Shown: positions 23,801-61,458 of the stretch, in pieces
How positions within the stretch are numbered: position 1 is the stretch's first letter
How the letters are laid out: each line of letters starts with the position of its first letter
NCBI GenBank assembly: GCA_965224275.1
Contig: CBDCYR010000002.1
Span: 192,902 to 256,901 of the forward strand
Source: Alphaproteobacteria bacterium
Lineage (GTDB): Bacteria > Pseudomonadota > Alphaproteobacteria > SHVV01
Direction: 5' to 3'
Length of the DNA: 64,000 bases
Translations under genes and position numbers: made by a program
The notes under the pieces: model-generated
The model's input: the letters and a program-made list of their open reading frames with translations, nothing else
Told to the model about the DNA's origin: nothing
Database searches by the model: none

Positions 23801-25101
23801 TCGACGTTCTCTATTCCGCCCAGCGCACCGAACTTGGCGGCGAGGATGTCCTGCTGGCAAGCGCAACCGATATCACCGGGCTTAAACGCGCCGATGCGGA
23901 GCTTCGTCATGCCAACGAGCGTCTATTCCAGGTTTTTCAATCGCTGCCTCAGGCGGCTGCGGTGAGCACGGTCGACGATGGCGCCCTGCGCTACGTTAAC
24001 GCCAAATGGCTCGAGACATTTGGCTTCTCCAGCGAGGAAGCGCTGGGCAAGACGACCGACGAGCTCGGTTTGTGGGTCGACGAAAAGTCCCGGGCACAGG
24101 CCTTCGAAACAGTCGTTAATCAGGGAAGTTTGCGTGACTTCGAAACCGTCATGCGGACCAGCGGCGGTCGAGAAATCGATGCTCTCCTTGCCATCGAAAG
24201 TCTTGAGATCGGCGGCGAGGATGTCGTTTTGGCCATCACCAGCGACATCACCGCGCGCAAGAGTGCCGAACGCGAGCTCCTGGCGGCAAAGGATGATCTC
24301 GAGCGCCGCGTTGAAGAACGGACCCACGAGCTGATCGAGGCCAAAGAAGCGGCTGAGACTGCCAACGTCGCGAAATCGCAGTTCGTCTCAAACATGAGCC
24401 ACGAGCTGCGCACACCCCTCAACGCGATCATTGGCTATAGCGAAATGTTGGGCGAGGAAGCTGTCGAGCGCTCATTGACGACATTCTCTTCCGATCTCGA
24501 ACGAATTAACTCCGCCGGCAATCATCTGCTTCATCTGATCGACGAGGTACTCGATCTCTCAAAGATCGAGGCTGGCAAATTCGATCTCGAACTCACCGCA
24601 TTCGACGTTTCAAAACTCGTTCGCGATTCCGCAGCCACCGTTGAAGCACTGGCGAAAAAGAATGGCAACGTTCTGCGGATCGAAAATTTCGAAGACGTGG
24701 GTCCGGTCGTTGGCGATGGAACCAAGGTCAAACAAATTCTCATGAATCTGTTGAGCAACGCCGCAAAGTTTACGACCAACGGTGAGATCATCTTGCAAGT
24801 CAGGCGAAGCTCCAACAGATCCCCAAATTTGATTTTCTCCGTTACCGATACCGGCATCGGCATCGCATCCGACAAGCTCGCGCAAATATTTAATCCGTTC
24901 AGCCAGGCCGACGGATCCACCACCCGGAAGTTTGGCGGGACCGGCCTTGGGTTGGCGATAACCCGTCGTTTCTGCCGGATGATGGGTGGCGACGTGGAAG
25001 TGAAAAGTGAAATTGGGCGCGGCACAACATTTACGGTCACCCTACCGCTTCTCAATGCGTGCGAACGCGAACGCGATGCTCAGCCGGTTTTCGCGGCCTA
25101 G
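20800..25101 (+). CDS. Giant membrane-anchored multi-PAS (~9 PAS/PAC modules) sensor histidine kinase, no receiver
   Basis: An N-terminal TM plus periplasmic-like segment with a second TM is followed by nine sequential ~125-aa PAS units. Each unit opens with a near-identical 'ANERF/ANDRF-(x)KAF-x-SP' motif. Then come HisKA ('SHELRTPLNAIIGYSEML') and HATPase_c ('GTGLGLAITRRFCRMMGG'). The ATG at 20800 overlaps the upstream stop (ATGCGTAG); an alternative GTG lies at 20770. Confidence 0.9.
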   Translation: MRSLSRQFWISGAVALVIIAISLTALHRSYIRHELVDAAKATATLLGHTMVNATGSRLSLYIAAAAGLDNEALAQNATKRDLASVIAESTRALPIVAVELHDSRGRTIFSTESNRIGRLNKSAGGIVSAINGGKTIARQHRAEIASLPGKEATVDVVDAYVPIVENGTTIGALHLFTDASPIATQVWRSNGAFFLTISLVLGAIYLVLFVVNRNSRIILRHSQEGLRHRFDKQNDELNRTQERFERVFRHSPALLTIADVDDGTIYDANDSWLTTLGFVRDEAIGRTTWDLNIWVCPEHRAEILRSLEENAVVTEFRTQFRTKSGGILEVLVSAEVVAFDGRRVMMGTATDITEQQRVESRLRYANARLNDKVEALYRSEALLAEKSNILQAVLENVEQGITAFDKDFRLAAWNERARELLDLGTLDQWPDVRAEDLFRHIASRGEYGDGDVEQVVRERLRMAESREPRRYERTRPDGRVLQVASDPLPGGGFATAFTDVTLQRKTEEVLRDRVSEHTMELEAEIEERKRVQQALIWANDRFHKAFYASPSMIAIMGSDDGVYHEVNEEWATTMGYAREEAIGKSAWELGIWANADERKRAVQLLNELGSLRNFETQFRCKDGSIIDGEFSAELVELDGKQAILGVANDITERKRAEIELQSANDRFTKAFRANPHMTAIIGREDGVLHNVNDSWTRNMGFTADEAIGASVFSLDIWVDPQERSRALSNITEQGSVHDFETRFRTKSGDIIDVIYAAEPVEIDGRDVLLAVSTDITARKRAEEEARKANERFSKAFHSSPNLVAMMSAKDGTFHDVNDYWLSKLGYVRSEVIGKRAGDLGIWAEAEDLEQANEVMRTSGHIRDLEARFRAKDGTIIHGLHGAEKIEIDGQTMYLQSTADITARKAAENEVLLANERFYKAFAASPSLYAIVGFNDAVLREVNVQWTEILGFTREETVGRSIWDFDIWIDPKAHERIVELVKLNGNVRDFETRFRTKNEEVIDVLYSAQRTELGGEDVLLASATDITGLKRADAELRHANERLFQVFQSLPQAAAVSTVDDGALRYVNAKWLETFGFSSEEALGKTTDELGLWVDEKSRAQAFETVVNQGSLRDFETVMRTSGGREIDALLAIESLEIGGEDVVLAITSDITARKSAERELLAAKDDLERRVEERTHELIEAKEAAETANVAKSQFVSNMSHELRTPLNAIIGYSEMLGEEAVERSLTTFSSDLERINSAGNHLLHLIDEVLDLSKIEAGKFDLELTAFDVSKLVRDSAATVEALAKKNGNVLRIENFEDVGPVVGDGTKVKQILMNLLSNAAKFTTNGEIILQVRRSSNRSPNLIFSVTDTGIGIASDKLAQIFNPFSQADGSTTRKFGGTGLGLAITRRFCRMMGGDVEVKSEIGRGTTFTVTLPLLNACERERDAQPVFAA

Positions 25102-25615: not shown

Positions 25616-27793
25616 ATGCGAAACATCCGTTCCTATGCGATTACAACGCTCGTGCTGGTGGTTCTGAGCGCGACTCTGATCTTCAGCTTGTACCGCTTGG
25701 GTGATGGATACCGCTCGGTCGAAAGCGGTCTGAGGACGGGGTCGTGGATGGCATCGCAAGCGGAGTTCGAACATCTCCGTTTGCTACGTGCGATCGATCT
25801 TTTCTACGCGGCCGACATTGATCAGGCGGAACTGCTATTGCGTCGCGATCTGTTTTGGAGTCGCGTCCCTCTGCTAACCAACGGGGCCGAAGCCGAGCAT
25901 CTGCGGAAAATCAAGGATGTGTACGAACTCGCGGCCGATCTCGAACGCGCGCTCGAAAAATCGATTCCACTATTTCAAGGTTTCAGTCCCGGTGACGAGG
26001 TCACTTATCGGGAAGCGAGAGAACTTTTCGAGCCACTAGCCCCGCGCTTGCACGAACTCCATCTCGAAACCTCCGGGCGCGGTTTTTCGCAAGCCATCGT
26101 CGATCGCGTGCTGGACTTGTATCGGTGGCTGCTTATCGGCTTGATTTGTGCAACCGCCGCCACCGTCGTGGTGGTTGCGATTGTCGTTTCGCAACTCCGG
26201 CGCGCGCGGGCTGCCAAGGATCAAATCCAAGCGACAACGCAGGAACTAACCGAAACGTCGTCACGACTTGACGACCTCGTCACCAACCTTCCGGCAGCGG
26301 TTGTGCTTGCCGATGCCGCGGGCGTCTACCGACACGCTAATCCCGTGTACTGCCAATGGGCCGGTTTGACCCTAAACGAAGTCGTCGGCAAAACCGCCGG
26401 CGATATCTTCCCGGCAGAGGTTGCCAGTCGGCTTGAGGATCTAAATCGCAAAGTCATTGAGGAGCGTCAGGCCATTCAAGAAGAGGTCGAGATTCCTATT
26501 AAAGGCGAGCCGAAAATCCGCTCGTTGTTGAAGTTTCCGATCTTCGATGCCGACCGCAACATTGTCGGCGTTGGCTCGGTGAGCACCGATCTCACCGCAC
26601 AACGCGAAGCCGAGCGCCGCCTGGAGCGGGCCCATCGCATGGAAACCGTGGGACAACTCTCCGGCGGCATGGCTCACGATTTCAACAATCTATTAATGGT
26701 GATTCGCGGCAACCTCGATCTTCTGCGGGAAGAACTCGGCGCCAACCCCACCGCCGCTACGAAAATCGATCGTGCGCTCAGAGGCGTCGATCGCGGCACT
26801 CAAATTATCCAGAGACTGCTGGCATTCGCACGCCAACAATATCTGTCGCCGATCCCGGTCCGCATCGACACGCTGTTCGAGCAAACCAAGGCGCTGCTCG
26901 AACGAACCCTGCGTGAGAATATTCAACTTGAGATCGACATTGCGCCCAAACTGCCATCGGTGCTTGTCGATCCCGTCCAATTCGAGTCGGCGTTGATCAA
27001 TCTGGCTCTAAACGCGCAAGACGCGATGGAAGACGGCGGATTACTGAGATTTACAGCGCGCAAAAGCGATACGACCGGGGATAAAACGCCGGCCCAGATT
27101 TCGGTTTCGGTTTCCGATAGCGGGACCGGCATCCGACCCGAGTTGTTGGACCGTGTGATCGAGCCTTTCTACACAACCAAACTTGTTGGTAAAGGCTCCG
27201 GGCTCGGTCTCAGCATGGTGTATGGGTTTGCCAAGCAGACCGGCGGCGAGATGAAAATAGACAGCGCCCTCGGGGAAGGAACAACCGTGACAATCTCGCT
27301 CCCAGCAACCCTCCAAACCAGCGTCACCGATGCCGACGATGGCGACGTTATTCAAGGCTCGGCCACGATTCTGGTGGTCGAAGATGAGCCGGACGTACGT
27401 TCGGTCGCCGAGGGATTGTTAGGCGAACTCGGTTACAATGTTATCTGTGCCGAACATGGTTCGGATGCGCTTAAAGTTCTCGAATCCAGCGTACGTCTAG
27501 ATCTGCTGTTCACCGATATGGTGCTGCCGGGCAATGTGAGCGGCCGCACCTTGGTCGAAATTACCCGCGTATTGCGGCCGGAAACCAAGGTGTTGGCGAC
27601 GTCAGGCTATGCCCAGGAAATGATTGAACGCGAGGGCGCCTTACCGATCGGGGTCACGTTGCTCGCCAAACCCTATTCCCTAAAGGCGCTCTCGATCGCC
27701 ATCGAACAAACACTGTCGTCGCAAACACCCCACCTTCCGGGCATTCCAGTACCCCGGGTTGGCGAAGAACGATGCATGGCGGCTCAGTCATGA
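25616..27793 (+). CDS. Membrane hybrid sensor histidine kinase (TM-periplasmic helical domain-TM, PAS, HisKA, HATPase_c, REC)
   Basis: 725 aa. Two TM segments flank a ~150-aa periplasmic region. The kinase has H-box '[19 protein letters not shown]', G-box '[12 protein letters not shown]' and a C-terminal REC 'ILVVEDEPDV...LLFTDMVLPG'. Confidence 0.9.
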   Translation: MRNIRSYAITTLVLVVLSATLIFSLYRLGDGYRSVESGLRTGSWMASQAEFEHLRLLRAIDLFYAADIDQAELLLRRDLFWSRVPLLTNGAEAEHLRKIKDVYELAADLERALEKSIPLFQGFSPGDEVTYREARELFEPLAPRLHELHLETSGRGFSQAIVDRVLDLYRWLLIGLICATAATVVVVAIVVSQLRRARAAKDQIQATTQELTETSSRLDDLVTNLPAAVVLADAAGVYRHANPVYCQWAGLTLNEVVGKTAGDIFPAEVASRLEDLNRKVIEERQAIQEEVEIPIKGEPKIRSLLKFPIFDADRNIVGVGSVSTDLTAQREAERRLERAHRMETVGQLSGGMAHDFNNLLMVIRGNLDLLREELGANPTAATKIDRALRGVDRGTQIIQRLLAFARQQYLSPIPVRIDTLFEQTKALLERTLRENIQLEIDIAPKLPSVLVDPVQFESALINLALNAQDAMEDGGLLRFTARKSDTTGDKTPAQISVSVSDSGTGIRPELLDRVIEPFYTTKLVGKGSGLGLSMVYGFAKQTGGEMKIDSALGEGTTVTISLPATLQTSVTDADDGDVIQGSATILVVEDEPDVRSVAEGLLGELGYNVICAEHGSDALKVLESSVRLDLLFTDMVLPGNVSGRTLVEITRVLRPETKVLATSGYAQEMIEREGALPIGVTLLAKPYSLKALSIAIEQTLSSQTPHLPGIPVPRVGEERCMAAQS

Positions 27794-27894: not shown

Positions 27895-29561
27895 ATGGAT
27901 AATCACCCATTACGTAAAGCCGCCAATGACGAGGCCGGACGTCTCGACACATCGGCCGTGATCGATAGCTCAGGTGGAATGACCAACGTGGCGATCAGCG
28001 ATAAGGCCAAAGTGCTCGAGCAATTGCTCGAAACAACCCAGGAAGGTTTCTGGTTTATCGACACCGATACCAGGACCATCGACGTCAACCCCGCCATGTG
28101 CAGGATCCTCGGCCCGCCGCGGGAGGAAATCCTCGGGCGGACGATTTTTGAGTTCGTCGATGATGCCAATACCGAAATCTTTCACCAACAGATCGCGGCC
28201 CGCAGACAAGGTCAGCACGGCAGTTACGAGATCGCGCTACGGCGATCCGACGGCACCAACATTCCCTGCGTGAACAATGCAACGGCGGTGTTTGACGATA
28301 ATGGCGAGCGCATTGCCTCGATCGGATTGTGGACCGACATCACCGAAATAAAGGAGAGTCAAAACCGTCTGGTCGCGGCCAAAGAAGAAGCCGAGAGCGC
28401 CAATCGCGCCAAATCTGAGTTTCTCTCTAGTATGAGCCACGAACTGAGGACGCCATTGCACGCGGTGCTCGGATTCGCCGAGCTCCTGGCATCGGATGCC
28501 GACCATCCCTTGAACCAGGTGCAACTTGGTCGCCTGCAACGCATCTTGAACAGCGGCGACCATCTCCTCAGTCTTATCGAGGGCGTCCTCGACCTCGCAC
28601 AAATCGAGCGCGGTGATGTCACGCTTTCAATTACCAGAGTGACCCCGCCGGAGGCTCTTGTCCGCTGCGTCGACATCGGCAGGGCGATGGCGCAAAAACG
28701 CGGTCTCGAGTTGCATGTTCTCGACTGCGACGACGAAGTGCCCGCGATCCTCGCCGATGCGACCCGACTGCAGCAGATCCTGCTTAATCTGTTTTCCAAC
28801 GCGGTCAAATACAATCGCGACGGCGGCACGGTAACGCTGCAATGCCAGCCCACGTCGGATGGAATGTTACGATTCGCGGTCACCGATACCGGGATTGGGA
28901 TTGCCAGCGACAAGCACGCCGAGCTGTTTGAGCCGTTTCGCCGATTGGGCATGGAAAGCGGCGCGATCGAGGGCGCCGGTATCGGCCTCACGATTACCCG
29001 CGACCTGGTCGAACTCATGAACGGACGTTTGTCGTTTGAAAGCGAACTCGGTGTCGGCAGCACGTTCTATGTTGATCTACCGTTGGCCCCCGATGACGCG
29101 ACGGGGTCGCGACCCGACCGGGCGCCGACCTCCGCGCCGGTCCCTATCGCCGCAACCACCAGTGCGGTGGTGCCAAACCACAGCCTCGTTCTTTATATCG
29201 AGGACAACCCCGATATTCTTCAACTGGTGGAAGATTACATCGCACCGCGATCGGAACTTGAACTTATCTCGGCCCACAACGCCGAGTTGGGTATGGTGTG
29301 ATCAAAAAGGAGCAGCCCGATCTCGTGCTTGTAGACATCAATCTCCCCGGCATGGACGGAATGGAATTCCAGCGCCGTTTGAAAGCCGACCAGAGCACAC
29401 GTGATATTCCGGTAATCGCGGTTACCGGCGCGGCGATGCAGCATGATCTTGACAACGCCGATGACGCCGGATTCTTCGGCTACCTGACCAAACCTTTCAA
29501 GCTCGCCGAAGTGGTTCTCATCATCCAACAAGCGCTCGCCACCCGCCAGACATCTGCCTAG
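27895..29561 (+). pseudogene. PAS sensor histidine kinase with C-terminal receiver, frameshift in the middle of REC
   Basis: PAS, HisKA ('MSHELRTPLHAVLGFAELL') and HATPase_c are followed by the REC N-half ('LVLYIEDNPDILQLVED'), which ends at the TGA at 29299-29301. The REC C-half ('QPDLVLVDINLPGMDGMEF...LTKPF') is in a different frame from 29298. The shift is adjacent to an A5 run. Possible real pseudogene or assembly indel. Confidence 0.65.
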
Positions 29562-50759: not shown

Positions 50760-51484
50760 TTAGACGACTTTACGCCTCCGCCTGGCGATAAATCCGAGGC
50801 CCGCGAGGCCGCTCGCCAGCAGGAGTGCGGCCGGCGGTAGCGGTACGACAACATCCGGTGGCCAGGAATCGAGCGTGCAACTGTCGCTGCCACAGTCCGC
50901 GACATGGAGCGCGACCCGCGAATTTTGTCTGCTAAGCAGGGCGGCAACCAGCGCGCCCTCGGTGGTCCCTGATACGGTACTGAATACCACGGTCCAGGAT
51001 TCGCCCGTGCCCATTCCGTTGTTGTTCACATTCTTGCGGTCGTAGGCAAACAGATTGCCAGCCCAACCTGGTCCGGGCGGGCTTACACCGGGAGGACTTC
51101 CGGGACTTGGGGTGGTGTCTGGCACGAGATTGACGCCGCCGGTACCGTTGGTCGTGCTGATCTGGCTGTTGAGGAAAACATTCAGGCCGCTCTCAAAATA
51201 GATTTCCGCGACTTCGGGTCCTGACGTGGGATCGCTGGGGTCGGCGGCCGGTGCGAACGAGCTATTGGTGAATACAAATGTCGCGTTGCCCCCGGTACCC
51301 GCACGGTCACGTCGAGCAAGAGATTAAGACCCGGGAAAATATCGCCTTGAGGCGCACCGTCATCGGGCGTGTAGAGAGGGTTATCGGCAGCCACGACCTG
51401 AAGAAGTATCGGTGCTGCCTTCGCGGTCGACGCTGGTAGGGCAATGCAACAAGCCAAAACCGCGAGACCGACGAATTTAGCCAT
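50760..51484 (-). pseudogene. Second VPLPA-CTERM secreted protein, frameshifted at a G5 run
   Basis: The signal peptide 'MAKFVGLAVLACCIALPASTAKA' (ORF 51182..51532) and the C-terminal 'VVPLPPAALLLASGLAGLGFIARRRRK' (ORF 50760..51125) are in different frames. The switch maps to 'ccccc' at 51292-51296. Confidence 0.6.
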
Positions 51485-51829
51485 CTCTCTTGGTAGGGCA
51501 CTCAATAGACGTAGCCTAGCTTCAGCGACCATCTTTCATCTCCGCTCCGAGACAACCCAAGTTTCTTATTCCCTGCACAGCGACACAAAGCGCTGTCGCC
51601 ATTGCGTGCAATCTCTTCTTACCCGCTCTCCTTCGACATTCGTCAAAACATGCCTCGTTACAATCAACGGTTGATTGTCTGCTGATTTATTCTATCAATC
51701 TCTTGATATTCCACGATAATATTAGGGTCAATCGATGTCTGTGCCGACGGTGCAAAGGGGGTAAAAATTCGATCCGGGTCGAATCACCGAGCCCTTCGAA
51801 TCGGACAAACGTGTAAAGGGGCGTTATGT

Positions 51830-53176
51830 GTCGATAACAAACTGAGTTGACCGCTTTATGTACCATATGAATTGACCGCTTCTGTTGTGGTGGTTTGGCT
51901 CGGTCGCGTCGAAACGGGTCACGCGGCCTGGAGCCTGTCGTCGTCGATGGTTTCGCCGTCGGCGCGGTAGCGCGCCAGACACCTGGGTCCGTGGAAGACG
52001 GCCAGGTGGCCGTCGGGATATTCGTGCACCCGGACCTGCGCCTTGACGTAGTGGTGGCGGTGGCGATCGGCCGGGATCTGCAGCGTGCGGTTCTTGTAGC
52101 GCACGGTGTTGTCGCCCGCGACGACGCGGTCCTCCTGGGCGCAGAGGATGTCCTCGAGCGTGCCGGCAAAAGCCACGAAGGCCGAGCCGGTGTCCGCGGC
52201 CGGGCGGGCGAAGCGGGCGTTGTGCGCCGGCCAGAAGAGCTCCTCGAGAAAGCGATTGGCCTCGGCCATGGTGGCGATCCCGGCGAGGCGCAGCTCCTGG
52301 GGCAGGCGCTTCTGCAAGGTCCCGAACATGCGCTCCGAGCGGCCCCGGGCCTGCGGCGAATAGGCCGCGATCAACTCGATGCCGAGCTGCGCCAAGGCCC
52401 GGCCGACCTGGGTCGGGTTGTCCTTGTCCACACCGCCGCCTGCCTCGGGCGTGTGCCAGTAGTGCGAGGCCCGATCGGCGTAGAGCGAGCAGAACAGCCC
52501 GTTTTCGGCGATCACCTCGCCGAGCCCGCGGAACGTGCTCATCGTGCCCTCCTCGGCAACGAAGAAGCCCGAATAGACCTCCGATGTCGCATCGTCCATG
52601 GTCACGATCAGATCCCACCACTGGCCCGCAACCCACTCGTGGCTCGAGCCGTCCTGGTGCAGCATCATCCCCACCACCGGTCGGCGCGGCCGCTTCCGGC
52701 GGTGCGCCCCGCGCCTGGGCGCCGGCTTGATCTTGCCGTGCGCCTGCAAGCTCAGGCGAAGCCAGTTGTAGCTCAGCCCGAAGCCATGCTCGCAGACCAG
52801 CTTCTCGTGGAAGTGCTTGGCCGTGAAGTCCGGGTAGCGCGTCTCGAACAGCTCCAGCACCCGCATCACCTCGTCCACCGGCGCGCGGCGCGCCGAGACC
52901 CGCCCAAGGCGACGGTCGTACAAACCCTCGGCACCCTCGGCCTCATAGCGCTCCCGCCAGCGCCGGAACGTCCGCTCCGACATGCCCAGGATCTCCGAGG
53001 CCTCGGCCTGGCTCAAATCACCCCGATAACAACGTCCGTAGACATCCTCGAACTTCATCAATCTCAGTCCCTGCAACTGCTCCGTCCGGCGCATCCGATT
53101 CCTCCAGATTTGGAGGAAATCTAAAACCGGACAGATCATCTGTTACATAGACCGGTCATATCGTGTGTTAGCGACA
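51830..53176 (-). mobile_element. ISNCY (IS1202-group-like) insertion sequence with long 17-bp target duplication
   Basis: Imperfect ~40-bp terminal inverted repeats ('TGTCGATAACAAACTGAGTTGACCGCTTTATGTACC' versus the reverse complement of 53140-53176). A direct repeat 'GTAAAGGGGCGTTATGT' lies at 51813-51829 and 53177-53193. IS1202-group elements are known for unusually long target duplications. Confidence 0.65.
51919..53139 (-). CDS. ISNCY/IS1202-like transposase (HTH + rve integrase-core)
   Basis: 406-aa frame with an N-terminal HTH ('SQAEASEILGMSERTFRRWRERYEAEG') and DDE integrase-core-like middle. The real start is probably downstream of the listed Met. Confidence 0.75.
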   Translation of the reverse strand: MICPVLDFLQIWRNRMRRTEQLQGLRLMKFEDVYGRCYRGDLSQAEASEILGMSERTFRRWRERYEAEGAEGLYDRRLGRVSARRAPVDEVMRVLELFETRYPDFTAKHFHEKLVCEHGFGLSYNWLRLSLQAHGKIKPAPRRGAHRRKRPRRPVVGMMLHQDGSSHEWVAGQWWDLIVTMDDATSEVYSGFFVAEEGTMSTFRGLGEVIAENGLFCSLYADRASHYWHTPEAGGGVDKDNPTQVGRALAQLGIELIAAYSPQARGRSERMFGTLQKRLPQELRLAGIATMAEANRFLEELFWPAHNARFARPAADTGSAFVAFAGTLEDILCAQEDRVVAGDNTVRYKNRTLQIPADRHRHHYVKAQVRVHEYPDGHLAVFHGPRCLARYRADGETIDDDRLQAA

Positions 53177-53193
53177 GTAAAGGGGCGTTATGT

Positions 53194-54782
53194 CGACCAA
53201 AATCGAAATAGTCTGTATGATACCTTGAATCCAATATTCCGCGTTCCTTACCCGGGATCATGTTTCTGCCGCGCAATCATTCTTACATCGGATCGTGTCC
53301 CGCGGAGTGGTGTAAGAGCGTTGCGCTCTACGCTGCTCCCGGCGGGTAGGGCCGGGACGTTCAGGCTGCCACGGTGGGCAGCGTGATGGGGACATCATCG
53401 CTCAGCGGAGCGATGGATTCCAGCGTCATGTATCTCCTTGAGACGGCCCACTCGTCGTTCTGCTCGAGAAGGATGGCGCCGACGAGCCGTGTGATGGCGG
53501 CTTCGTTGGGAAAGATACCGACGACGTTGGTGCGACGCTTGACCTCGGCATGGAGCCGTTCGATCGGGTTTGTGGAGTGCAATTTCTGGCGGTGCTCCCT
53601 GGGGAAGCTCATGTAGGCGAGGACGTCGTGCTCGGCTTCGTCCATGAGAACTGCCAGCTTGGGCACCTTGAGCCTGAGCTGGTCGGCGACCTGGCGCCAC
53701 TGGACCTTCGCGCTGTCGGCGTCCTCCTGGGCGAAGGCGGTGGCGACGAAGGCGGAGACGACGCGCCGGCCCTGGCGGCCGGCATGGGCCAGCAGGTTGC
53801 GGGCGAAGTGCACGCGGCAGCGCTGCCATGTGGCGCCGAGGATCCGGGTCGCGGCGGCCTTCAGGCCCTTGTGGTCGTCGGAGATCACCAGCTTCACGCC
53901 GCGCAGCCCGCGCCGGGCCAGCGAGCGCAGGAACTCGGTCCAGAAGGCCTCGGCCTCAGACGCGCCGATCGCCATGCCCAGGACCTCGCGGCGGCCCTGG
54001 TCGTTGACGGCCACAGCCACGGTCACCGCGACCGAGACGATGCGCCCGGCCTCGCGCACCTTTACATAGGTTGCGTCGAGCCACAGATAGGGCCAGTCGC
54101 CCTCCAGCGATCGATCGAGGAAGCCGTTGACCTTATCGTCGATCTCGCCGCACAGCCTGGAGACCTGGCTCTTGGAGACGCCCGACATGCCCATGGCCTG
54201 CACCAGGTCGTCGACCGAGCGGGTCGACACGCCCTGGATGTAGGCCTCCTGGATCACCGCAGCCAGCGCCTTCTCGGCCATCCGCCGCGGCTCCAGGAAG
54301 CCCGGGAAGTAGCTCCCCTTCCTCAGCTTCGGGATCTTCAGCTCGACCGTGCCGGCCCGCGTCTCCCAGGACCGGTCGCGGTAGCCGTTGCGGTGGGTGA
54401 TACGATCCGCCGAGCGCTCGCCGTGAGCGGCGCCGGTCAGGCCCTCGACCTCCAGTGCCATCAGCCGCTCGGCCGTGAAGCCGATCATCTCGCGAAGCAG
54501 ATCGGCATCGGAGCTCTTCTCCAAAAGCGCGCGCAGGGTCATCATGTCCTGGGTCATCGTGGTTCTCCTTCGGGTCAGGTTGGTTTGCACTAGCCCAACC
54601 CTAAACCGGAACCGCGATGGCCTCCGCTGTGGATAGCCGGCTTGCCTACGCCAGACTCTCGGCGGTCGCTACGGCAAGCCGCCTACCCACAGCTAACAGA
54701 GGCTCCAACAACTCCTACACCACGTCCTGGGACACGACCTTACATCGTTGATACCTCTCCCACGTCGAGAGGTTGTGGCCGC
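53194..54782 (-). mobile_element. IS256-family element (boundaries approximate)
   Basis: It contains an intact IS256-family transposase. The exact inverted repeats and target duplication could not be resolved by eye. Confidence 0.5.
53361..54590 (-). CDS. IS256-family (Mutator-like) transposase
   Basis: 409 aa with the characteristic '[13 protein letters not shown]' DDE region and a C-terminal '[41 protein letters not shown]'. Confidence 0.9.
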
Positions 54783-54878
54783 GTATCGGTACAATTCCGG
54801 TCCCGGCGGCGTTGCCGCTACTGCTCACTTGTCTGATCGGCCTGGGGCTGATCGGTCGCGGTCGGAAATCCGCCTAAC
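54783..54878 (+). pseudogene. Orphan 3' remnant of a VPLPA-CTERM gene
   Basis: It translates to 'IGTIPVPAALPLLLTCLIGLGLIGRGRKSA*'. This is almost identical to the tail of the 40936..41670 protein ('IIPVPAAMPLLLSGLVGLGLIGWRKRKAA'). No upstream body is present; IS256 abuts it. Confidence 0.55.
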
Positions 54879-55084
54879 TGTCGCAGAGCTAAGGGCGGCT
54901 TTGGCTGCCCTTTTTGACTGACACCCGGCGATGATCCGAGTAACGCACCATTTTGGCACCGCCAAACTCTGCTCGCTTGCACACCACTAACCCGTTCGCT
55001 ACAAAATTGGGACGGTCCGGCCACGCCACGCCGGTCGAGGCTGTTTCCCTCACGAGCGGAGAGTAGTTTGAGCACCAATCCAAA

Positions 55085-56833
55085 TTGTCGCGTGCGCACC
55101 CGGCAGAACCACCCACCCCTTCGCTTGCATCGTTTCCCGCGATGACCGCGCCGGTTTTCGACCCACCCGGGCCCGGGTCTTGGGTGCTCGATGATGTGCA
55201 TTTCGCACGGCCGGCGTCGCGCTATCTGGTCAGCGTGTTCCCGTTGGCGATGCCGGTCGGATTCCGCGCCGGTACAAAGCATTATGGTCTGTTGCTCGAC
55301 TACATCGAGATCGCCTTTGTCGGCAATTTCTTCTATTCGCAGCCACGCCCGATTGGCGCACCGCCGGGCGCCAAGGGGCCGCCACCCAAGCTGATCTTCC
55401 AGATACTCACCCGCCTCCACCCCGAGATGCGCCGGCGCGTCAAACGCAGCGCCGAGGTGTTCGAAAAAAAGGCCTGGCGTGAAGATCTGGCATGGTGGAA
55501 CAACGAGCTCAAACCGCAATCGCTCGAGCATGCGCGGGGGCTGCAGGCAGTCGACCTCGACGGGCTCGCCGCCGACGCGCTGCTCGCCCATCTCAACGAC
55601 TGCCGCGAGTTCGTGCTTTTCGCGGTCACCAACCACCATCGGCTCAATCCCTGCAACATGGTGCCTCTGGGGGATTTTCTCAGTCATGCCCAGGCCTGGA
55701 CCGGCCTCGCCACAGGCGAACTCCTGCAACTCATGCAGGGCGCGTCACCCTATTCTGGCGGCGCTGTGTCCGAACTCGAGGCGCTGGCTGCAGCGTTGCG
55801 CGAAGACGCCGAAGCCTTGGCGGTGCTGCGGTCCGACCGTGATGCGCTCGACATCCTCGATCACCTGCGCAGCCACAACCGCGCGGTCGGCAATGCGGCC
55901 CGCGCCTACATCGATCTGATCGGCTATCGCATTATGTCGGGTTACGACGTCGCCGATCTCTACACGTTGGAAGCGCCGGGCTCGTTGATCGAGGTCATGC
56001 GTACCGCCGTCGATGCCGATCCCGAGGCGCCCACCGCCGCTGCCGATGTGAGCGCCAAACTCGCCGCGGTGCGCGATGCCGTGCCCGAGCGGCACCACGC
56101 CGAGTTCGACGAACTCTATGACGAAGCCCGCGCCACCTACCATTTACGCGACGAGAAGATCATGTGCGGCGATGCGCTCGCTACCGGGCTCACCCGGCGC
56201 GCGCTGCAAGCGATCGGGCGCCTGCTTGCTGAGGCCGGCAAACTCGACGACCCCACTCACATCTTCGATGCCACCCACGAGGAGATCGTCGGCTTGCTCG
56301 CAACCGGTGACGGTCCGCCGGCCGCTGAATTCGCCGAACGCACGCAACAACGGGCCGCGGCTGAGATCGCCGGCGCCCCGCCTTTGCTCGGTCCGCCGCC
56401 GGCTCCACCGCCGCCGGCCGATTGGTTCCCGGCCAAGGCGCGGCGCATGCAACAGGGCATGGACGCCGTGCTGACGCACATGTTTCGCCACGACGACCGC
56501 CCGCCCGAGGGCAAAATGCTGCACGGCCTCAGTGCCAGCCCCGGCAGTTACGAGGGCATCGCCAGGGTGGTGACGGGGCCGGACGATTTCCAGCGGGTCG
56601 AGCCCGGCAATGTGCTGGTCGCGAAGACCACGGCGCCGGCCTACAACGTGCTGCTGCCGATGCTCGGCGCGGTGGTTACCGCGCGCGGCGGCGTGCTATC
56701 GCACGCGGCCGTGGTAGCACGCGAATACGGCCTGCCCGCCGTGGTTGGCTGCGGCGAAGCGATGACCGAAATCGCCGATGGCGCGCGGGTTCGCGTCGAT
56801 GGTGATGCGGGAGCGGTTTGGATCGAGGCTTAG
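55085..56833 (+). CDS. Protein with ~440-aa N-terminal domain of unknown function + C-terminal PEP-utilising-enzyme mobile (phosphohistidine swivel) domain
   Basis: 582 aa. The C-terminus 'VLVAKTTAPAYNVLLPMLGAVVTARGGVLSHAAVVAREYGLPAVVG' is the PF00391 swivel domain with the phospho-His ('LSHAA'). The start may be the internal Met at 55142. Confidence 0.7.
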   Translation: MSRAHPAEPPTPSLASFPAMTAPVFDPPGPGSWVLDDVHFARPASRYLVSVFPLAMPVGFRAGTKHYGLLLDYIEIAFVGNFFYSQPRPIGAPPGAKGPPPKLIFQILTRLHPEMRRRVKRSAEVFEKKAWREDLAWWNNELKPQSLEHARGLQAVDLDGLAADALLAHLNDCREFVLFAVTNHHRLNPCNMVPLGDFLSHAQAWTGLATGELLQLMQGASPYSGGAVSELEALAAALREDAEALAVLRSDRDALDILDHLRSHNRAVGNAARAYIDLIGYRIMSGYDVADLYTLEAPGSLIEVMRTAVDADPEAPTAAADVSAKLAAVRDAVPERHHAEFDELYDEARATYHLRDEKIMCGDALATGLTRRALQAIGRLLAEAGKLDDPTHIFDATHEEIVGLLATGDGPPAAEFAERTQQRAAAEIAGAPPLLGPPPAPPPPADWFPAKARRMQQGMDAVLTHMFRHDDRPPEGKMLHGLSASPGSYEGIARVVTGPDDFQRVEPGNVLVAKTTAPAYNVLLPMLGAVVTARGGVLSHAAVVAREYGLPAVVGCGEAMTEIADGARVRVDGDAGAVWIEA

Positions 56834-57678
56834 CGATCCGCCCGCAAATCCTGCCTCTGGACGAGGCGACCGATACCGGCGCTTGCGGCGGCAAGGCGGT
56901 GCAGCTCGGCGCCGCGCTACGCGCCGGACTGCCGGTACCACCCGGCCTGGTGGTCACCGCCGCGGCGGCCGCGCGCATCGCGGCTGGCGATCCCGAGCCA
57001 ATCGCGGCACTTAAGGAAGCCTACCAGGCAAGTTTCGACGGCCCGATCGCGGTGCGTTCGTCTGCGACCGATGAGGATTCGGTGGATGCCAGCTTTGCCG
57101 GCCAACACGAAACCCTGCTCAATGTGAGAGGCTTCGAAAGCGTGCACGATGCCGTCGTCGCCGTATGGCAATCGGCGCACAGCGAAGCGGCTCTGGCTTA
57201 TCGCCGCCAACTCGGTGTGGACGGCGAGCCCAGCTGCGCGGTGGTACTGCAAACCCTGGTCGAGCCCGATTGCGCTGGCGTGCTGTTCACCATCGATCCG
57301 ATGTCGGGTGAAGACGTACGGGTTGTTGAAGCGGCCTGGGGATTCGGCGAAGCCGTCGTGTCGGGCCTGGTCACCCCCGATCACGTATGTATGGACCGCG
57401 CCGGCACCGTAGTGTCCAGCCAGGCCGGTGCCAAGGAGCACGCGCTGCGTCGGGCCACCGATAGCGGCCTCGAAGAACACGAGATAGAACCGGCGCTGGT
57501 CGGCCAGCTTTGCCTCGACCCCACGCAGTTGCGGCGGCTTAACGATCTTGCCGGTACGGTTGAGACGCTGTTTGGCCACGGCCAGGACATCGAATGGGCG
57601 TTTGCCGGCGACACCTTATTCCTGCTGCAAACCCGACCGATCACGACCGCCTCCACCGCCCCAAGGGCCGAGACTTGA
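56818..57678 (+). CDS. PEP/pyruvate-binding (PPDK_N, ATP-grasp-type nucleotide-binding) domain protein
   Basis: 286 aa with 'GGKAVQLGAALRAGLPVPPGLVVT...IAVRSSATDEDS...SFAGQHETLLNV' typical of PF01326. It overlaps the upstream gene by 16 nt. Confidence 0.75.
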   Translation: MDRGLAIRPQILPLDEATDTGACGGKAVQLGAALRAGLPVPPGLVVTAAAAARIAAGDPEPIAALKEAYQASFDGPIAVRSSATDEDSVDASFAGQHETLLNVRGFESVHDAVVAVWQSAHSEAALAYRRQLGVDGEPSCAVVLQTLVEPDCAGVLFTIDPMSGEDVRVVEAAWGFGEAVVSGLVTPDHVCMDRAGTVVSSQAGAKEHALRRATDSGLEEHEIEPALVGQLCLDPTQLRRLNDLAGTVETLFGHGQDIEWAFAGDTLFLLQTRPITTASTAPRAET

Positions 57679-57688
57679 GGCGGCGGAC

Positions 57689-59131
57689 ATGACCGAAACC
57701 GTCGCCGGAGAATCGCCGAACGGACCAAAGAAACGGCCGGTCGAGCCCATCGGCCAGCGCAGCCTGATGCGGCTGTTCATCTCGGCCACGCTGGCGTCGA
57801 GCCTATTGCCGCTGAATTCGACGATGATTGCGGTGGCATTGCCCGAGATCGGGCTCGAGTTTGACGCCAAACCGGCCGACCTCACCCAGGCCCTGGTCGT
57901 GGTCTATCTACTGGCTGGGATCGTCGCCCAGAGTCCGGCCGGAAAGTTCGGCGACATATGGGGCCACACCCGCATGCTGGCGCTGGGCCGGTGGTTGTTC
58001 GCCGGCGCCGCGGTGCTCGGCGTTGTGTCACCCTACCTGTTTGGCCTGTCGGTCTCGCGGATCTTGATGGCGGTCGGCGGCGCCCTGATGATCCCGGCGA
58101 CGATGGCGCTGCTCCGCATTCATATAAATGTCGAGCGGCGCTCGCGTTTGTTCGGCTACTTCGGCGCGGCAATGGCCAGCTCCGCCGCGCTCGGGCCGCT
58201 GATCGGTGGCGTCCTAACCGAACATTTCGGCTGGGCATCGGTGTTCCTGGCCAACATACCGATCCTGGCGCTATCGATTGTGCTGCAACCACGCGGGCTC
58301 GCTGATACCGCAGCCAAGGGCGAGGGCCGAGCTGGCGACACCAAGGCGAACTTGCGCCACTTTGATTGGCTCGGAAGCGTGCTGTTGGGGGTCGGGCTGG
58401 TGGCGTTGGTCACCGTGGCCCGAACACCGGGCAGCGCCGCACTCATCCTGGGTGCGCTCGGCGTGGTGTCGATCGGCTGGTTCATCATCTGGGAGCTGCG
58501 GGTACCGGTGCCGGTGGTCGATCTCATGCTGTTTCGCCGGCTGACCTTTACCGCCGGCGCAATCATGATCGCGCTGCAGAATGTGGCGATGTATGCGACG
58601 TTATTTCAGATGCCGTTCTATCTGGCGGTTTTGATCGATGCCGGCCCCTCCGAAATCGGCATTGTGCTGTGGGCGATGAGCGGCGGCATGGTGCTGTTTG
58701 CGCCGGTCGGTGGCATGTTATCCGAACGCCTCGGGGTGCGGCGCACAGTGGCGGGCGGCGCGGCGATCTCGATCATCGGCATCGCCCTGCTGGTCGCCAC
58801 CTTCGGCACGCCCTCACTGGTGATCGTCACCAGCTGCGTCTTGGTGTTCGGCTGCGGCTTCGGGCTATCACATGGCCCGATCCAGGCCGCGGCACTGTCG
58901 GCCATTCCACCCCAGCACAGCGGCATGGCCTCGGGCGTGATTGCAACCTTGCGCTATATCGGCGGCGTCATTGGCATCGCCGCGCTCGGCCTGCTGCTGG
59001 CGAGCGATCCGGGCGGCGCCGATCTCACCATCCACCGCGACGCCTTCATGCTCTATGTCGGCAGTCTGATATTGACACTCTTCTTGGCACTTGCGATGCC
59101 GCGCTTCCTGCGCGACGTCGAGGCGAAATAG
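57689..59131 (+). CDS. MFS drug/metabolite exporter (14-TM EmrB/QacA-like)
   Basis: Hydrophobic 14-TM pattern, 'LPEIG...' motif A region, start 11 nt after the preceding stop. The listed frame begins earlier (57548), but that N-terminus is Arg/Pro-rich. Confidence 0.8.
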   Translation: MTETVAGESPNGPKKRPVEPIGQRSLMRLFISATLASSLLPLNSTMIAVALPEIGLEFDAKPADLTQALVVVYLLAGIVAQSPAGKFGDIWGHTRMLALGRWLFAGAAVLGVVSPYLFGLSVSRILMAVGGALMIPATMALLRIHINVERRSRLFGYFGAAMASSAALGPLIGGVLTEHFGWASVFLANIPILALSIVLQPRGLADTAAKGEGRAGDTKANLRHFDWLGSVLLGVGLVALVTVARTPGSAALILGALGVVSIGWFIIWELRVPVPVVDLMLFRRLTFTAGAIMIALQNVAMYATLFQMPFYLAVLIDAGPSEIGIVLWAMSGGMVLFAPVGGMLSERLGVRRTVAGGAAISIIGIALLVATFGTPSLVIVTSCVLVFGCGFGLSHGPIQAAALSAIPPQHSGMASGVIATLRYIGGVIGIAALGLLLASDPGGADLTIHRDAFMLYVGSLILTLFLALAMPRFLRDVEAK

Positions 59132-59160
59132 CGCTTCCCGGTCGGGGACGCCGCGGCTTG

Positions 59161-60639
59161 CTTAGCAGCCCGTTGACGAAGTCTTCCCTGGACGAAGTCG
59201 GCATGGTCTGATTCTCTGGTGTCCTGGCCTGAAGGGGGGTTCGCTGATGGCGATGGGACAGCAGAAGGATCGTCAGGGGGACTTGATGGTGAGCTGGTCG
59301 GAGATGCCGCGCTCGCCAGGTCATGTATTTTACGACCGCCTGCAGTTGGTACTGATCGAGGGCGGCTTCGACGGCTTCGCCGAGGCGGTCTGCCAGCCCT
59401 ATTACGCGGCCAGGATGGGGGCGCCTTCGGTGCCACCCGGGCGCTACTTCCGTATGCACCTGGCGGGCTACTTCGAGGGTATCGACTCTGAGCGTGGGCT
59501 GGAGTGGCGCTGCTCGGATTCCCTGTCGCTACGGGAGTTCCTGCTGTTGGAGATGCGGGAACGGGTGCCGGACCATTCCTGGCTGTCACGGACCCGCGCG
59601 CGCCTGCCCCATGAAGTCCACACGGCGGTGTTTGACTGGGTCCTGGCGCTGATCGCCGAGGCGGGTCTGGTGAAGGGCGAGCGCATCGGGGTGGATGCCT
59701 CGACCATGGAGGCCAACGCGGCGCTGCGCAACATCGTGCGGAGGGACACGGGCGAGGGTTACCGGGGGATGCTGGAGCGCTTGGCCCAGGAGAGCGGTAT
59801 CGAGACACCCACGGCTGAGGACCTGGCGCGTCTGGACCGCAAGCGCAAGGGCAAGAAGCTCTCGAACCAGGACTGGGTTTCCAGGAGCGACCCCGAGGCC
59901 AAGATCGCCAAGATGAAGGACGGCACCACGCACCTGGCCTACAAGCCCGAGCACGCGGTGGATCTGGACACCGGCGCGGTGGTGGCGGCGGAGCTGCACC
60001 CGGCCGACGAGGGCGATACGACAACGCTTCCCAAGACCCTGGCGGCGGCCGAGGCAAACCTCGAGGCGGTGGATGTGGCGCCGACGGCCGAAGATCCGGC
60101 CGAATGTGTGACCGATAAGGGCTACCACTCACGGTTGGTCTTGAAGGCGCTCGACGACGGCCCCTGGAAGAGCCGGATCTCCGAGCCCAAGCAGAAGGGT
60201 TTTGCGCGCTGGCACGGAGATGATGCGGCTCGCCGGGCGGTCACCAACAACCGGACCCGGCTGTTATCGGGGGTGGCCAGGGAAGCCTTCAAGCTGCGCG
60301 CCGAGATCGTCGAGCGCTCCTTTGCCCACAACCTCGATCGCGGCGGTATGCGCCGGACCTGGCTTCGGGGCCGCGAGAACGTGCACAAGCGATACCTGCT
60401 TCACGTCGCCGGCCACAACCTATCGTTGCTGATGCGCCAACTCATCGGCGCCGGCACCCCGAAGGAGGCCGTGGCGGGCGGAATTGGCGCCTTGTTCGTG
60501 CTTGTTACGCCCGCTGGAGCCGTCCTGGTCGTTCAGATCGTCCTCATCGTCTCGGAGGATGGCGAAACCGCCTTCGCCGCGATATGCTTCGCCGTGGCGT
60601 GAAACCCGGTCAATGACGCCTTTTTCAACGGGCTGTTAG
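59161..60639 (+). mobile_element. IS1182/IS5-like insertion sequence (1479 bp)
   Basis: The terminal inverted repeats are 'CTTAGCAGCCCGTTGA' (59161-59176) and, at the other end (60625-60639), the reverse complement of 'CTAACAGCCCGTTGA'. It encloses a 451-aa transposase. Confidence 0.6.
59247..60602 (+). CDS. IS1182/IS5-superfamily transposase (DUF772 N-terminal + DDE)
   Basis: 451 aa: 'SRTRARLPHEVHTAVFDWVL...ERIGVDASTMEANAALRNIV...' plus a C-terminal DDE_Tnp_1-like region. Confidence 0.75.
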   Translation: MAMGQQKDRQGDLMVSWSEMPRSPGHVFYDRLQLVLIEGGFDGFAEAVCQPYYAARMGAPSVPPGRYFRMHLAGYFEGIDSERGLEWRCSDSLSLREFLLLEMRERVPDHSWLSRTRARLPHEVHTAVFDWVLALIAEAGLVKGERIGVDASTMEANAALRNIVRRDTGEGYRGMLERLAQESGIETPTAEDLARLDRKRKGKKLSNQDWVSRSDPEAKIAKMKDGTTHLAYKPEHAVDLDTGAVVAAELHPADEGDTTTLPKTLAAAEANLEAVDVAPTAEDPAECVTDKGYHSRLVLKALDDGPWKSRISEPKQKGFARWHGDDAARRAVTNNRTRLLSGVAREAFKLRAEIVERSFAHNLDRGGMRRTWLRGRENVHKRYLLHVAGHNLSLLMRQLIGAGTPKEAVAGGIGALFVLVTPAGAVLVVQIVLIVSEDGETAFAAICFAVA

Positions 60640-61172
60640 GCGCGCTTCACCCAGCATTCGATCTGCCACTCGACGGCGCCGGCGGCATCGCGTTTATCAT
60701 AATTGACGCGCGACTTCTTGAGCTTGGCGCGAGCGACTTTCGCCAGGCCATCGCGCAGGTCGGCTGGCAGTTCGTCGATGTCGAGATTGAGGCGGACCGG
60801 CGTGAGAGGTTTACGCGATGCCGTGGTCGACTTCTTGGCAGCGGACTTCTTCTTCGACGGACCCTTGTCGTTCCCCCAAATCGCATCCCAGCCGCTGCGA
60901 TATTCCGGCGTCTTAACATTGGAGAAATAGCCGTAGTGGACTTCCTTGGAGCCGCCAATGGATTCGCGCGCCGATTTTTCAGCGCTGCCACTGCCACTGT
61001 CGGATTTGCTCTTATCCGATGTGCTCTTGTCGGATTTGCTTGTGTCAGATGTGCTCTTGTCAGATGCATCGGACGCGGTTTTGGACTCGGACGTACTCTT
61101 ATCCGATTTGCTTTTGGCCGCGCTGCCGCTATCGGCTTTGGCTGATTTGGGCTTCGTTTTGGTATCGCTCAT
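60636..61172 (-). CDS. Lys/Ser/Asp-rich low-complexity protein with a conserved C-terminal segment
   Basis: Start chosen at the internal ATG (RC of 61170-61172): 'MSDTKTKPKSAKADSGSAAKSKSDKSTSESKTASDASDKSTSDTSKSDKSTSDKSKSD...' followed by '...LPADLRDGLAKVARAKLKKSRVNYDKRDAAGAVEWQIECWVKRA'. The stop codon (60636-60638) falls inside the IS terminal repeat. Confidence 0.5.
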   Translation of the reverse strand: MSDTKTKPKSAKADSGSAAKSKSDKSTSESKTASDASDKSTSDTSKSDKSTSDKSKSDSGSGSAEKSARESIGGSKEVHYGYFSNVKTPEYRSGWDAIWGNDKGPSKKKSAAKKSTTASRKPLTPVRLNLDIDELPADLRDGLAKVARAKLKKSRVNYDKRDAAGAVEWQIECWVKRA

Positions 61173-61458
61173 CGTGCTTTTCGGGTTGCCGTGGGGACCG
61201 GGGTCTGCGCCGACGGGATACACAAAGGTGCCGGGGAATTCAAGAAGCTTGTTGGGCCTCAAGGAATAAGAAGCGGAAATAACAAGTGGGATTGAGAGGT
61301 GGGTCAGGTGCTGGGGAGGGGGAACGGTAGGCGCTTCAAAAACGACCGCGGGCGGGAGATATGCCGGCCCCTTCCAATATGTGGGGCGCCTATTAAACCT
61401 GCTAGCAAGTGTCGTTAGAGATCGTAGACGACCCCGTAACCCGCGCCTCGGGCGTTTG

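Follow-up and report, generated by a model that had tools for sequence, protein, structure and literature searches.

The DNA examined here is a 64,000-nt stretch of contig CBDCYR010000002.1 from an alphaproteobacterial assembly (the whole stretch is called the window below), and our subject is a cassette of three co-oriented open reading frames (ORFs) on its + strand, designated g1, g2 and g3. The products of g1 and g2 are a split enzyme of the rifampicin phosphotransferase (Rph) type in which the substrate/swivel gene comes first and the catalytic motifs are all intact, and g3 encodes a 14-transmembrane (14-TM) transporter of the major facilitator superfamily (MFS). Conservation of this trio is deep and extends across several bacterial phyla. 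We suggest that the three proteins may phosphorylate a small hydroxylated compound at the expense of ATP and expel it from the cell.

Organization of the Cassette

The three ORFs lie where a first reading of the DNA from its letters alone (the sequence-only reading) had placed them, as the ORF listing confirmed (Table 1). As listed, g1 spanned 55085-56833, with a TTG start and 582 aa. This is an alternative upstream start, and the true one is almost certainly the ATG at 55142, giving 563 aa, since the database proteins 100% identical to g1 are 563 aa long and the DNA homology between the window and an 83%-identical relative (L001) starts at 55136. The TTG start of g2 sits in the last 16 nt of g1 with a ribosome-binding site (GGGAG) ahead of it, and the ATG of g3 at 57689 follows the g2 stop after a 10-nt spacer with GAGG upstream. 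Based on the overlap, the spacer and the ribosome-binding sites, g1-g2-g3 looks like one translationally coupled operon. None of the PADLOC defence models was matched by g1, g2 or g3.

Substrate and Swivel Domains of g1

The sole Pfam domain found in g1 was the phosphoenolpyruvate (PEP)-utilizers domain (PF00391), at residues 506-576 of the 582-aa ORF (E 6.6e-23). The approximately 445 residues preceding this swivel domain had no match in the Pfam release used, and residues 1-470 have no sequence relative in the PDB. An AlphaFold model was built with 22 homologues as input and reached a predicted local distance difference test (pLDDT) value of 92.3 and a predicted template modelling score (pTM) of 0.91. 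When this model was searched with Foldseek, the only full-length match was to RPH-Lm of Listeria (5fbt, 5fbu; E 3.5e-17, template modelling score 0.61-0.65, 17-18% identity), whereas PEP synthase, pyruvate phosphate dikinase (PPDK), pyruvate kinase and Enzyme I matched the swivel domain only. A family profile aligned collinearly with RPH-Lm as well (positions 197-391 with 510-720; a weak match, E 0.004, below what a mapping of the single rifampin contacts would need) and set Arg666-Glu667 of RPH-Lm opposite R336-D337-E338 of g1. D337 is invariant, and R336 and E338 are each kept in 35 of 36 family members, drawn from both clades described below. In Rph, R666 and E667 are catalytic in the second phosphotransfer (PMC4844700). 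As judged from the model, the domain of about 440 aa that the sequence-only reading had called unknown and novel instead has the fold of the Rph rifampin-binding domain, with a sequence far from every characterised member. Newer Pfam releases name the g1-type substrate domain Rph_4th.

The catalytic motif of the swivel domain is TARGGVLSH. Within T513-x2-G-G-x3-H521, the residues T513, G516, G517 and H521 are invariant in 36 sequences. Leu519, two positions ahead of His521, occupies the place of the regulatory Thr, which in PEP synthase lies two residues ahead of the catalytic His; the T/S-x2-G-G-x3-H motif is used as defined in the same source (PMC12167813).

The g1 substrate domain as sole query of a set of 1.84 billion representatives returned 365 clusters (50% identity) at E<=1e-30 and 1,638 at E<=1e-3, most of the relatives being about 560 aa long. 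One protein from this search, P0233 (1514 aa), consists of an ATP-grasp domain, an Rph-type substrate domain, a swivel domain, an EF-hand pair and two dual-specificity phosphatase (DSPc) domains, with kinase and phosphatase modules within one chain.

The ATP-Grasp Subunit g2

In Pfam, g2 was assigned to PPDK_N (E 9.5e-65). It matches 9goj_A, which we take to be HpeI (E 1.2e-39), and the Rph ATP-grasp domain (E 2.4e-38) about equally. K26, R80 and T99 are the counterparts of the ATP-site residues K22, R117 and T136 of Rph and are conserved, and the N-lobe is shorter by about 50-70 residues. Two relatives, P0247 and P0255, are single chains in which the substrate domain, the swivel and the ATP-grasp domain follow each other in the operon order, fused. 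The sequence-only reading had drawn a parallel with phenylphosphate synthase and described the pair as a permuted Rph; both points are borne out by the full-length match of g1 to RPH-Lm, the ATP-grasp match of g2 and these fused chains.

The MFS Pump g3

The g3 protein belongs to MFS_1 (E 1.3e-42, Pfam). Averaged hydropathy gave 14 TM segments and the AlphaFold model has 14 long helices (pLDDT 86, pTM 0.85), in agreement with the earlier assignment to 14-TM MFS proteins. The best structural matches of the model were the 14-TM exporters EmrB, NorC, EfpA, an Rv1410 homologue and QacA, with template modelling scores of 0.69-0.77. In TM5, 19 of 20 g3 orthologues keep GPxxGG, the core of antiporter motif C.

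Distribution of the Family and Linkage to the Pump

A genome scan gave 39 loci with full-length g1 relatives (39-47% identity), and g2 stands directly after g1 in nearly all of them. The neighbour-joining tree of the g1 family showed a two-way split between a clade associated with cyclic nucleotide monophosphate (cNMP)-binding modules and the rest. Among the 15 tree sequences outside the cNMP clade, 13 (the window and 12 loci) have an MFS gene directly after g2, the exceptions being L004, where the contig is truncated, and L016. The g3 orthologues behind g2 in these lineages share 42-49% identity, and the lineages include Sorangium, Myxococcota, Nocardioides, Geodermatophilus, Pseudonocardia and Terriglobia. 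Four further database contexts (L085, L086 and L087 among them) all contain an MFS gene, which in L086 and L087 again comes after g2. The sequence-only reading had staked its proposal on homologues being linked to an exporter; such linkage was found, both in the tree sequences and in the further contexts. In the context of P0016 (JGI 3300072015), the MFS gene comes directly after the g1 homologue and no ATP-grasp gene is called between them; it may be encoded elsewhere or have been missed.

More distant loci (L040, L048, L052 and L063) have the order g2-g1-MFS, with 27-31% identity and, for the g3 homologue, 34-39%. The identities of g1 and the MFS protein co-vary (r 0.95-0.97). When the flanking genes of 11 MFS-type loci were compared by blastp clustering and Pfam (34 proteins), no recurrent family was found, the largest covering at most 2 of the 34. 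Catabolic genes (carboxylase, phosphatase, P450) are not conserved beside the operon, and none is present in the window. Because no flanking gene family recurs, g1-g2-MFS appears to be a self-contained unit.

The g1 subfamily is found widely in soil phyla, among them Actinomycetota, Myxococcota and Acidobacteriota. It has no curated NCBIfam model, and the genes go under no labels other than 'PEP-utilizing enzyme', 'pyruvate, water dikinase' and 'MFS transporter'.

Fusion of the ATP-Grasp Subunit to the Pump

In locus L085, the g1 homologue is followed by one continuous ORF of 703 aa that encodes ATP-grasp and then MFS. The ATP-grasp part ends with '...SRPITT', the first MFS helix begins about 13 residues further on, and the fusion is collinear with g2 (48%) and then g3 (41%) of the window. 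A database search with this fusion returned 978 matches at E<=1e-20; all of the best 120 of these (P0274-P0393) carry PPDK_N and MFS_1 in one chain. They represent at least 120 distinct 90%-identity clusters, with 56-100% identity and lengths of 587-781 aa. Where the source names them, the fusions come from Thermoanaerobaculia, and they are labelled 'MFS transporter' or 'EmrB/QacA'. The linker between 'RPIT' and 'PLNST' varies from 21 to 44 residues, and because its length varies, the sequences are as expected for old and genuine fusions. A g1 homologue lies directly upstream in three fused loci (L085, L088 and L089), and the overlap of g1 with the fusion, read directly in L088 and L089, is 4 nt. 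Literature searches for a kinase-MFS fusion or for the g1 subfamily found no description.

A Sister Clade with a Cyclic-Nucleotide-Binding Domain

In the monophyletic sister clade, a cyclic-nucleotide-binding domain (PF00027, E 1e-13 to 1e-18) forms the C-terminal part of g2 or, in other loci, is encoded by a separate small gene directly after g2. No MFS gene was found in the cNMP sister clade loci. The catalytic residues and many substrate-domain residues are common to the MFS-type and cNMP-type clades. This domain composition suggests that the sister clade may be a cAMP/cGMP-regulated Rph-like dikinase.

The two clades are distinguished by residue 166 of g1, which adjoins the invariant His165: it is His in 13 of 13 MFS-linked proteins and Met in 13 of 13 cNMP-fused ones. 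This position may be a specificity determinant.

Flanking Regions and Insertion Sequences

The cassette lies between two insertion sequence (IS) elements, an IS256-family one upstream and an IS5/IS1182-type one downstream; the sequence-only reading had named such flanks, and Pfam transposase matches show that they are present. The downstream element has 27-nt inverted repeats (59160-59186 and 60615-60641) and starts 29 nt after the g3 stop. In L083 and L084, two closely related assemblies with a g1 of the window's 90%-identity cluster, the upstream IS256-type element is kept; a second upstream IS (51919-53139) and the IS5-type element are absent from them, and g3 is followed directly by the gene of a 208-aa protein and EamA. 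In L001, the 83% relative, homology to the window is confined to the MscS/hydrolase region and, exactly, the cassette (55136-59153); other IS lie between them, and the IS256-family transposase is absent. The GC content at third codon positions (GC3) of the cassette, 0.73-0.82, equals that of its chromosomal neighbours, and a search with the 4.6-kb cassette against 72,556 plasmids gave no match. Because the IS differ between relatives, GC3 is that of the neighbours and no plasmid matched, we conclude that the IS elements are independent insertions in an IS-prone region and that no transposon carries the cassette. The IS flanks say nothing on the mobility of the cassette.

A promoter scan of the non-coding DNA that separates g1 from the IS256-family transposase gene found no sigma-70-like site. 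In Rfam searches, the region ahead of g1 in the window gave no credible match and ten MFS-type loci gave none that reached the gathering score, and a de novo search of the regions upstream of MFS-type loci, the actinobacterial ones included, found no shared motif, k-mer or palindrome. About 240 nt ahead of g1, the leader contains a terminator-like hairpin that is followed by a T-run; this may be either what is left of the terminator of an upstream gene since displaced or a structure of the leader itself.

Several other features of the window should be mentioned. The second upstream IS is a 406-aa transposase-like ORF with helix-turn-helix-type Pfam matches only, which is bracketed by 17-nt perfect direct repeats (GTAAAGGGGCGTTATGT). 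A 121-aa ORF further upstream has the C-terminal end ...VPLPPAALLLASGLAGLGFIARRRRKVV, which by eye resembles PEP-CTERM/VPLPA-CTERM and has no NCBIfam match. On the other side, the 208-aa protein is rich in Lys, Ser and Asp, with KSDKSTSD-type repeats, and has no family match; where the IS5 insertion is missing, its gene comes directly after the cassette. Five large PAS-domain sensor/hybrid histidine kinases, with best matches to CckA-like PRK13557-type models, occupy the region 7618-29301.

Table 1. Positions of the cassette, its domains and motifs, other features of the window and comparison loci (window numbering unless a locus is named).
Feature	Position	Strand	Basis or remark
g1, substrate-binding and phospho-His swivel subunit	55142-56833	+	563 aa; ORF listing, AlphaFold, Foldseek
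g1 residues 1-445, mainly helical Rph-type (rifampin-binding-domain-like) substrate domain	55142-56476	+	Foldseek, family profile
g1 residue 166	55637-55639	+	His or Met
g1 R336-D337-E338 motif, opposite Rph catalytic Arg666-Glu667	56147-56155	+	Profile alignment
g1 residues ~455-563, PEP-utilizers swivel domain	56504-56830	+	PF00391, PDB alignments
g1 His521 codon	56702-56704	+	Catalytic motif
g2, ATP-grasp nucleotide-binding subunit	56818-57678	+	286 aa, TTG start; PPDK_N
g3, 14-TM DHA2-type MFS transporter	57689-59131	+	480 aa, ATG start; MFS_1
g2 fused to cNMP-binding domain	L012:7605-8909, L019:7605-8864, L024:6161-7429, L035:7629-8882, L037:3078-4373, L015:1793-3091		PF00027
Separate small cNMP-binding gene directly after g2	L006:8470-8883, L008:8433-8906, L010:8357-8845, L011:5350-5763, L031:8436-8879
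ATP-grasp-MFS fusion	L085:5686-7797, L088:4001-5953, L089:2162-4333		g1 homologue directly upstream
IS256-family transposase gene	53361-54590	-	Transposase_mut, E 9.5e-123
Non-coding stretch, IS256-family transposase gene to g1	54591-55141	+	Leader, except perhaps the first ~100 nt (IS)
Terminator-like hairpin and T-run	54887-54906	+	In leader
IS5/IS1182-type element	59160-60641	+	Transposase 59247-60602 (+); DUF772, DDE_Tnp_1
208-aa protein gene	60636-61262	-	No family match
406-aa transposase-like ORF	51919-53139	-	Absent from L083, L084
17-nt direct repeats	51813-51829, 53177-53193		Bracket the 406-aa ORF
121-aa ORF	50760-51125	-	No NCBIfam match
PAS-domain kinases	7618-10719 (-), 15399-18986, 20770-25101, 25616-27793, 27895-29301

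Proposed Mechanism

For the cassette we favour a scheme, 'phosphorylate and expel', in which an ATP-dependent dikinase and a dedicated DHA2-type pump would serve the same hydroxylated compound. It is favoured because all sequence and structure relatives of g3 are exporters and no catabolic genes are linked; with the architecture included, we give it an even chance of being right. The process would start with the binding of ATP by g2. Then, His521 on the swivel domain of g1 would attack the beta-phosphate of ATP, the gamma-phosphate being released as inorganic phosphate (Pi), and AMP would leave. The swivel domain would move back to the helical substrate domain of g1, where R336 and E338 would aid the transfer of the phosphate to the hydroxyl of the small molecule. 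The net reaction would be X-OH + ATP + H2O -> X-O-P + AMP + Pi. It would proceed at the cytoplasmic face of g3, g2 being covalently tethered to the pump in the large lineage with fusions, and g3 would act as a proton antiporter and carry the compound, or the phosphorylated form of it, out of the cell, which would make the cassette a self-contained detoxification or secretion module. The dikinase activity of g1-g2 is presumed by analogy with characterised relatives (PMC12167813, PMC4844700). For the unfused version of the window, we infer the complex of g1, g2 and g3, and likewise the direction and the substrate of transport by g3. The 'xenobiotic kinase plus exporter' of the sequence-only reading stays a putative function.

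A more specific proposal is that the cassette is the unfused form of a transporter-coupled dikinase. A His-swivel kinase would stand in a physical complex with a 14-TM MFS pump, phosphorylation and passage would be coupled, either for expulsion or in the manner of the PEP-dependent phosphotransferase system (PTS), and the sister branch would have a cyclic-nucleotide sensor instead. We regard this proposal as possible and put it forward tentatively.

A number of observations weigh against phosphorylation followed by export. The best NCBIfam match of g3, the DHA2/EmrB model TIGR00711 (E 6.9e-43), scores 147.1 bits and stays below the cut-off of 230.2. The full motif C pattern, G-x8-G-x3-GP-x2-GG, is unmatched in the g3 orthologues, its core alone being kept. 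DHA2 pumps mostly move cationic or lipophilic compounds, and the phosphorylated product would be anionic. In the fusions, the part tethered to the pump is the ATP-binding subunit, not the substrate-binding one. The cNMP module in place of the MFS gene is less what one would expect of a defence against xenobiotics than of a physiological kinase under regulation. The substrate domain keeps 40-50% identity across phyla, with 24 invariant positions in residues 1-445, and the fused form is very common within one class; because of this conservation and this frequency, the sequences suggest one common substrate and a housekeeping-like role. Finally, the characterised two-component relatives are all catabolic 'trap' kinases, not detoxifiers (PMC12167813).

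Alternative Explanations

The main rival of 'phosphorylate and expel' reverses the direction of transport: g3 would take up a scarce hydroxylated (e.g., phenolic) nutrient and the dikinase would phosphorylate it at the inner mouth, as an ATP-driven PTS analogue feeding unlinked catabolic enzymes. It holds this place because the characterised relatives are catabolic and the fusion has the look of group translocation. Indeed, PpsAB, CreHI and HpeHI all start phenolic catabolism, and phosphorylation trapping has been proposed for HpeHI, with sub-micromolar KM values (PMC12167813). The kinase subunit is covalently tethered to the transporter, as group translocation predicts, and the family is wide and stable in soil phyla. 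However, the transporter is DHA2-like, its closest matches in sequence and structure are all exporters with the GPxxGG core kept, the operon lacks conserved catabolic neighbours such as carboxylase, phosphatase or P450 genes, and g1 falls outside the PpsA/HpeH sequence family. On balance we consider import unlikely. Another possibility, which we find improbable, is a regulated kinase acting on an endogenous metabolite, where the MFS or cNMP domain would be the input or sensor that switches g2 and the MFS protein would be a transceptor or an outlet for the phospho-metabolite. The C-terminus of g2 bears an MFS or a cNMP-binding domain, the latter either in the same chain or encoded by the gene that follows, and catalytic as well as many substrate-domain residues are conserved across both clades; PpsAB, too, has a third, stimulatory subunit with CBS domains. 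Against this stand the lack of evidence of allostery, the complete split of the clades by His166 vs Met166, which leaves room for different substrates, and the rarity of MFS sensors without transport.

The remaining explanations were rejected. A split rifamycin phosphotransferase conferring resistance together with efflux is recommended by the JGI label 'rifampicin phosphotransferase' on several homologues, by Rph being the sole full-length structural match and by the conserved catalytic Arg and Glu. Yet identity to RPH-Lm is 17-18%, the scores lie far below the rph equivalog cut-off of 999, and the Arg-Glu pair also occurs in distant clades with other substrates (PMC4844700). A de novo search of the actinobacterial loci, where an upstream RAE element would be expected of an Rph gene, found no shared upstream palindrome, and the sister clade is apparently regulated by a cNMP module. 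An Rph orthologue is contradicted by the split genes, the low identity and the equivalog scores, and we think this reading very improbable. A mobile resistance cassette borne by a composite transposon would explain the IS256-family and IS5/IS1182-type transposases on either side of the genes, but the two IS are of different families, L083 and L084 have neither the IS5-type nor the second upstream IS, and L001 has other IS. Since the homology of L001 includes the upstream MscS region, the chromosomal locus is the same. These differing IS, the GC3 and the absent plasmid match contradict the transposon, which is hardly credible. Finally, homologues are auto-annotated 'pyruvate, water dikinase', as a broken, pseudogenised ppsA beside an unrelated pump would be. 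The chance of this is practically negligible: neither g1 nor g2 has the PEP/pyruvate-binding TIM barrel, PEP synthase structures match the swivel only, both ORFs are intact, and the split is kept across phyla in hundreds of clusters. The residue two positions ahead of the catalytic His is Leu, not the regulatory Thr. The missing barrel, the intact ORFs and the conserved split thus contradict a broken ppsA, which the sequence-only reading had named as a finding that would refute it; the N-terminal domain of g1 matches the structure of RPH-Lm and is not the central domain of PEP synthase.

Significance

Among the Rph-like dikinases, a large and mostly unexplored group, the characterised members serve either to inactivate an antibiotic or to initiate the degradation of lignin-type phenolics. 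Since the present subfamily is constantly paired with one pump, and its kinase subunit is fused to this pump in many bacteria, a machine that joins kinase and transporter directly is predicted. With an antibiotic or a toxin as substrate, it would be a resistance mechanism of a new kind, concealed among genes that carry drug-pump labels; with a nutrient, it would be a new form of group translocation. The family has cultured hosts, Sorangium cellulosum, Nocardioides astragali and Geodermatophilus sabuli, in which the hypothesis is directly testable.

Comparison with Known Systems

A two-component subfamily of Rph-like dikinases has been published, comprising HpeHI of Rhodococcus, CreHI of Corynebacterium and the phenylphosphate synthase PpsAB of Thauera (Dexter et al., J Biol Chem 2025, PMC12167813). 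The split design itself is thus already known, and by sequence g1-g2 appears to be a different, uncurated subfamily. Both groups have an H/A subunit with an Rph-type substrate domain and a C-terminal swivel His, an I/B ATP-grasp subunit, and the gene order H then I. The T/S-x2-GG-x3-H motif is common to g1 and PpsA/CreH/HpeH, with Ser ahead of the His as in PpsA and CreH, and the chemistry is presumably the same dikinase reaction from ATP to AMP and Pi. However, on the PRK08296.1-5 model g1 scores 126 bits against a cut-off of 578, whereas genuine PpsA/HpeH-type proteins (L074, L078 and L058) score 775-784. Members of the PpsA/CreH/HpeH family share about 45% identity. BLASTP of g1 against a PpsA/HpeH-type protein aligned residues 316-559 only, the first ~315 being unalignable, and g1 aligns end to end (32%) with the fused relative L039. 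The g1 and g2 proteins are also smaller (563 and 286 aa vs roughly 610-640 and 350-390 aa). A place in an aromatic catabolic cluster would be expected of a member of that family; g1-g2 has no catabolic neighbours and has an MFS or cNMP-binding module as its partner.

Rph (PDB 5FBT, 5HV1) has the same three modules and the swivel mechanism, and its catalytic Arg-Glu and ATP-site Lys/Arg/Thr are conserved in g1 and g2. It is one chain running from ATP-grasp through the substrate domain to the swivel, whereas g1-g2 is split with the substrate/swivel gene first. On the NCBIfam rph models (NF041857/NF000283, cut-off 999), g1 reaches 94.8 bits, through its swivel domain only, and g2 190.5 bits. According to the Rph paper, distant clades keep the Arg-Glu pair and differ in substrate (PMC4844700); because such non-rifampin clades share it, the conservation of Arg-Glu says nothing for a rifamycin substrate. 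The ATP-grasp and phospho-His swivel domains of PEP synthase and PPDK are homologous to those of g1-g2, and the principle of the dikinase is shared. Unlike them, g1-g2 has no PEP/pyruvate TIM barrel (Pfam) and no regulatory Thr, its substrate domain is another one, and its His domain is C-terminal.

Like the DHA2 antiporters EmrB, QacA, NorC, EfpA and the Rv1410 homologue, g3 has 14 helices, the GPxxGG core in TM5 and a motif-A-like loop. It differs from them in its identity of about 20-22% and in being coupled genetically, and in relatives covalently, to a kinase subunit; our literature searches found no description of such coupling for a DHA2 pump, nor of an MFS-coupled dikinase with natural fusions and a cNMP sister branch. 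The PTS differs from the cassette in its donor (PEP, not ATP), in its transporter (EIIC, not MFS) and in its HPr and EIIA/B, which the cassette lacks, and transport by g3 is probably outward. The likeness to PTS group translocation is a functional one only, a phospho-His relay that ends on a small molecule at a membrane transporter, and Enzyme I of the PTS shares the PEP-utilizers fold with g1.

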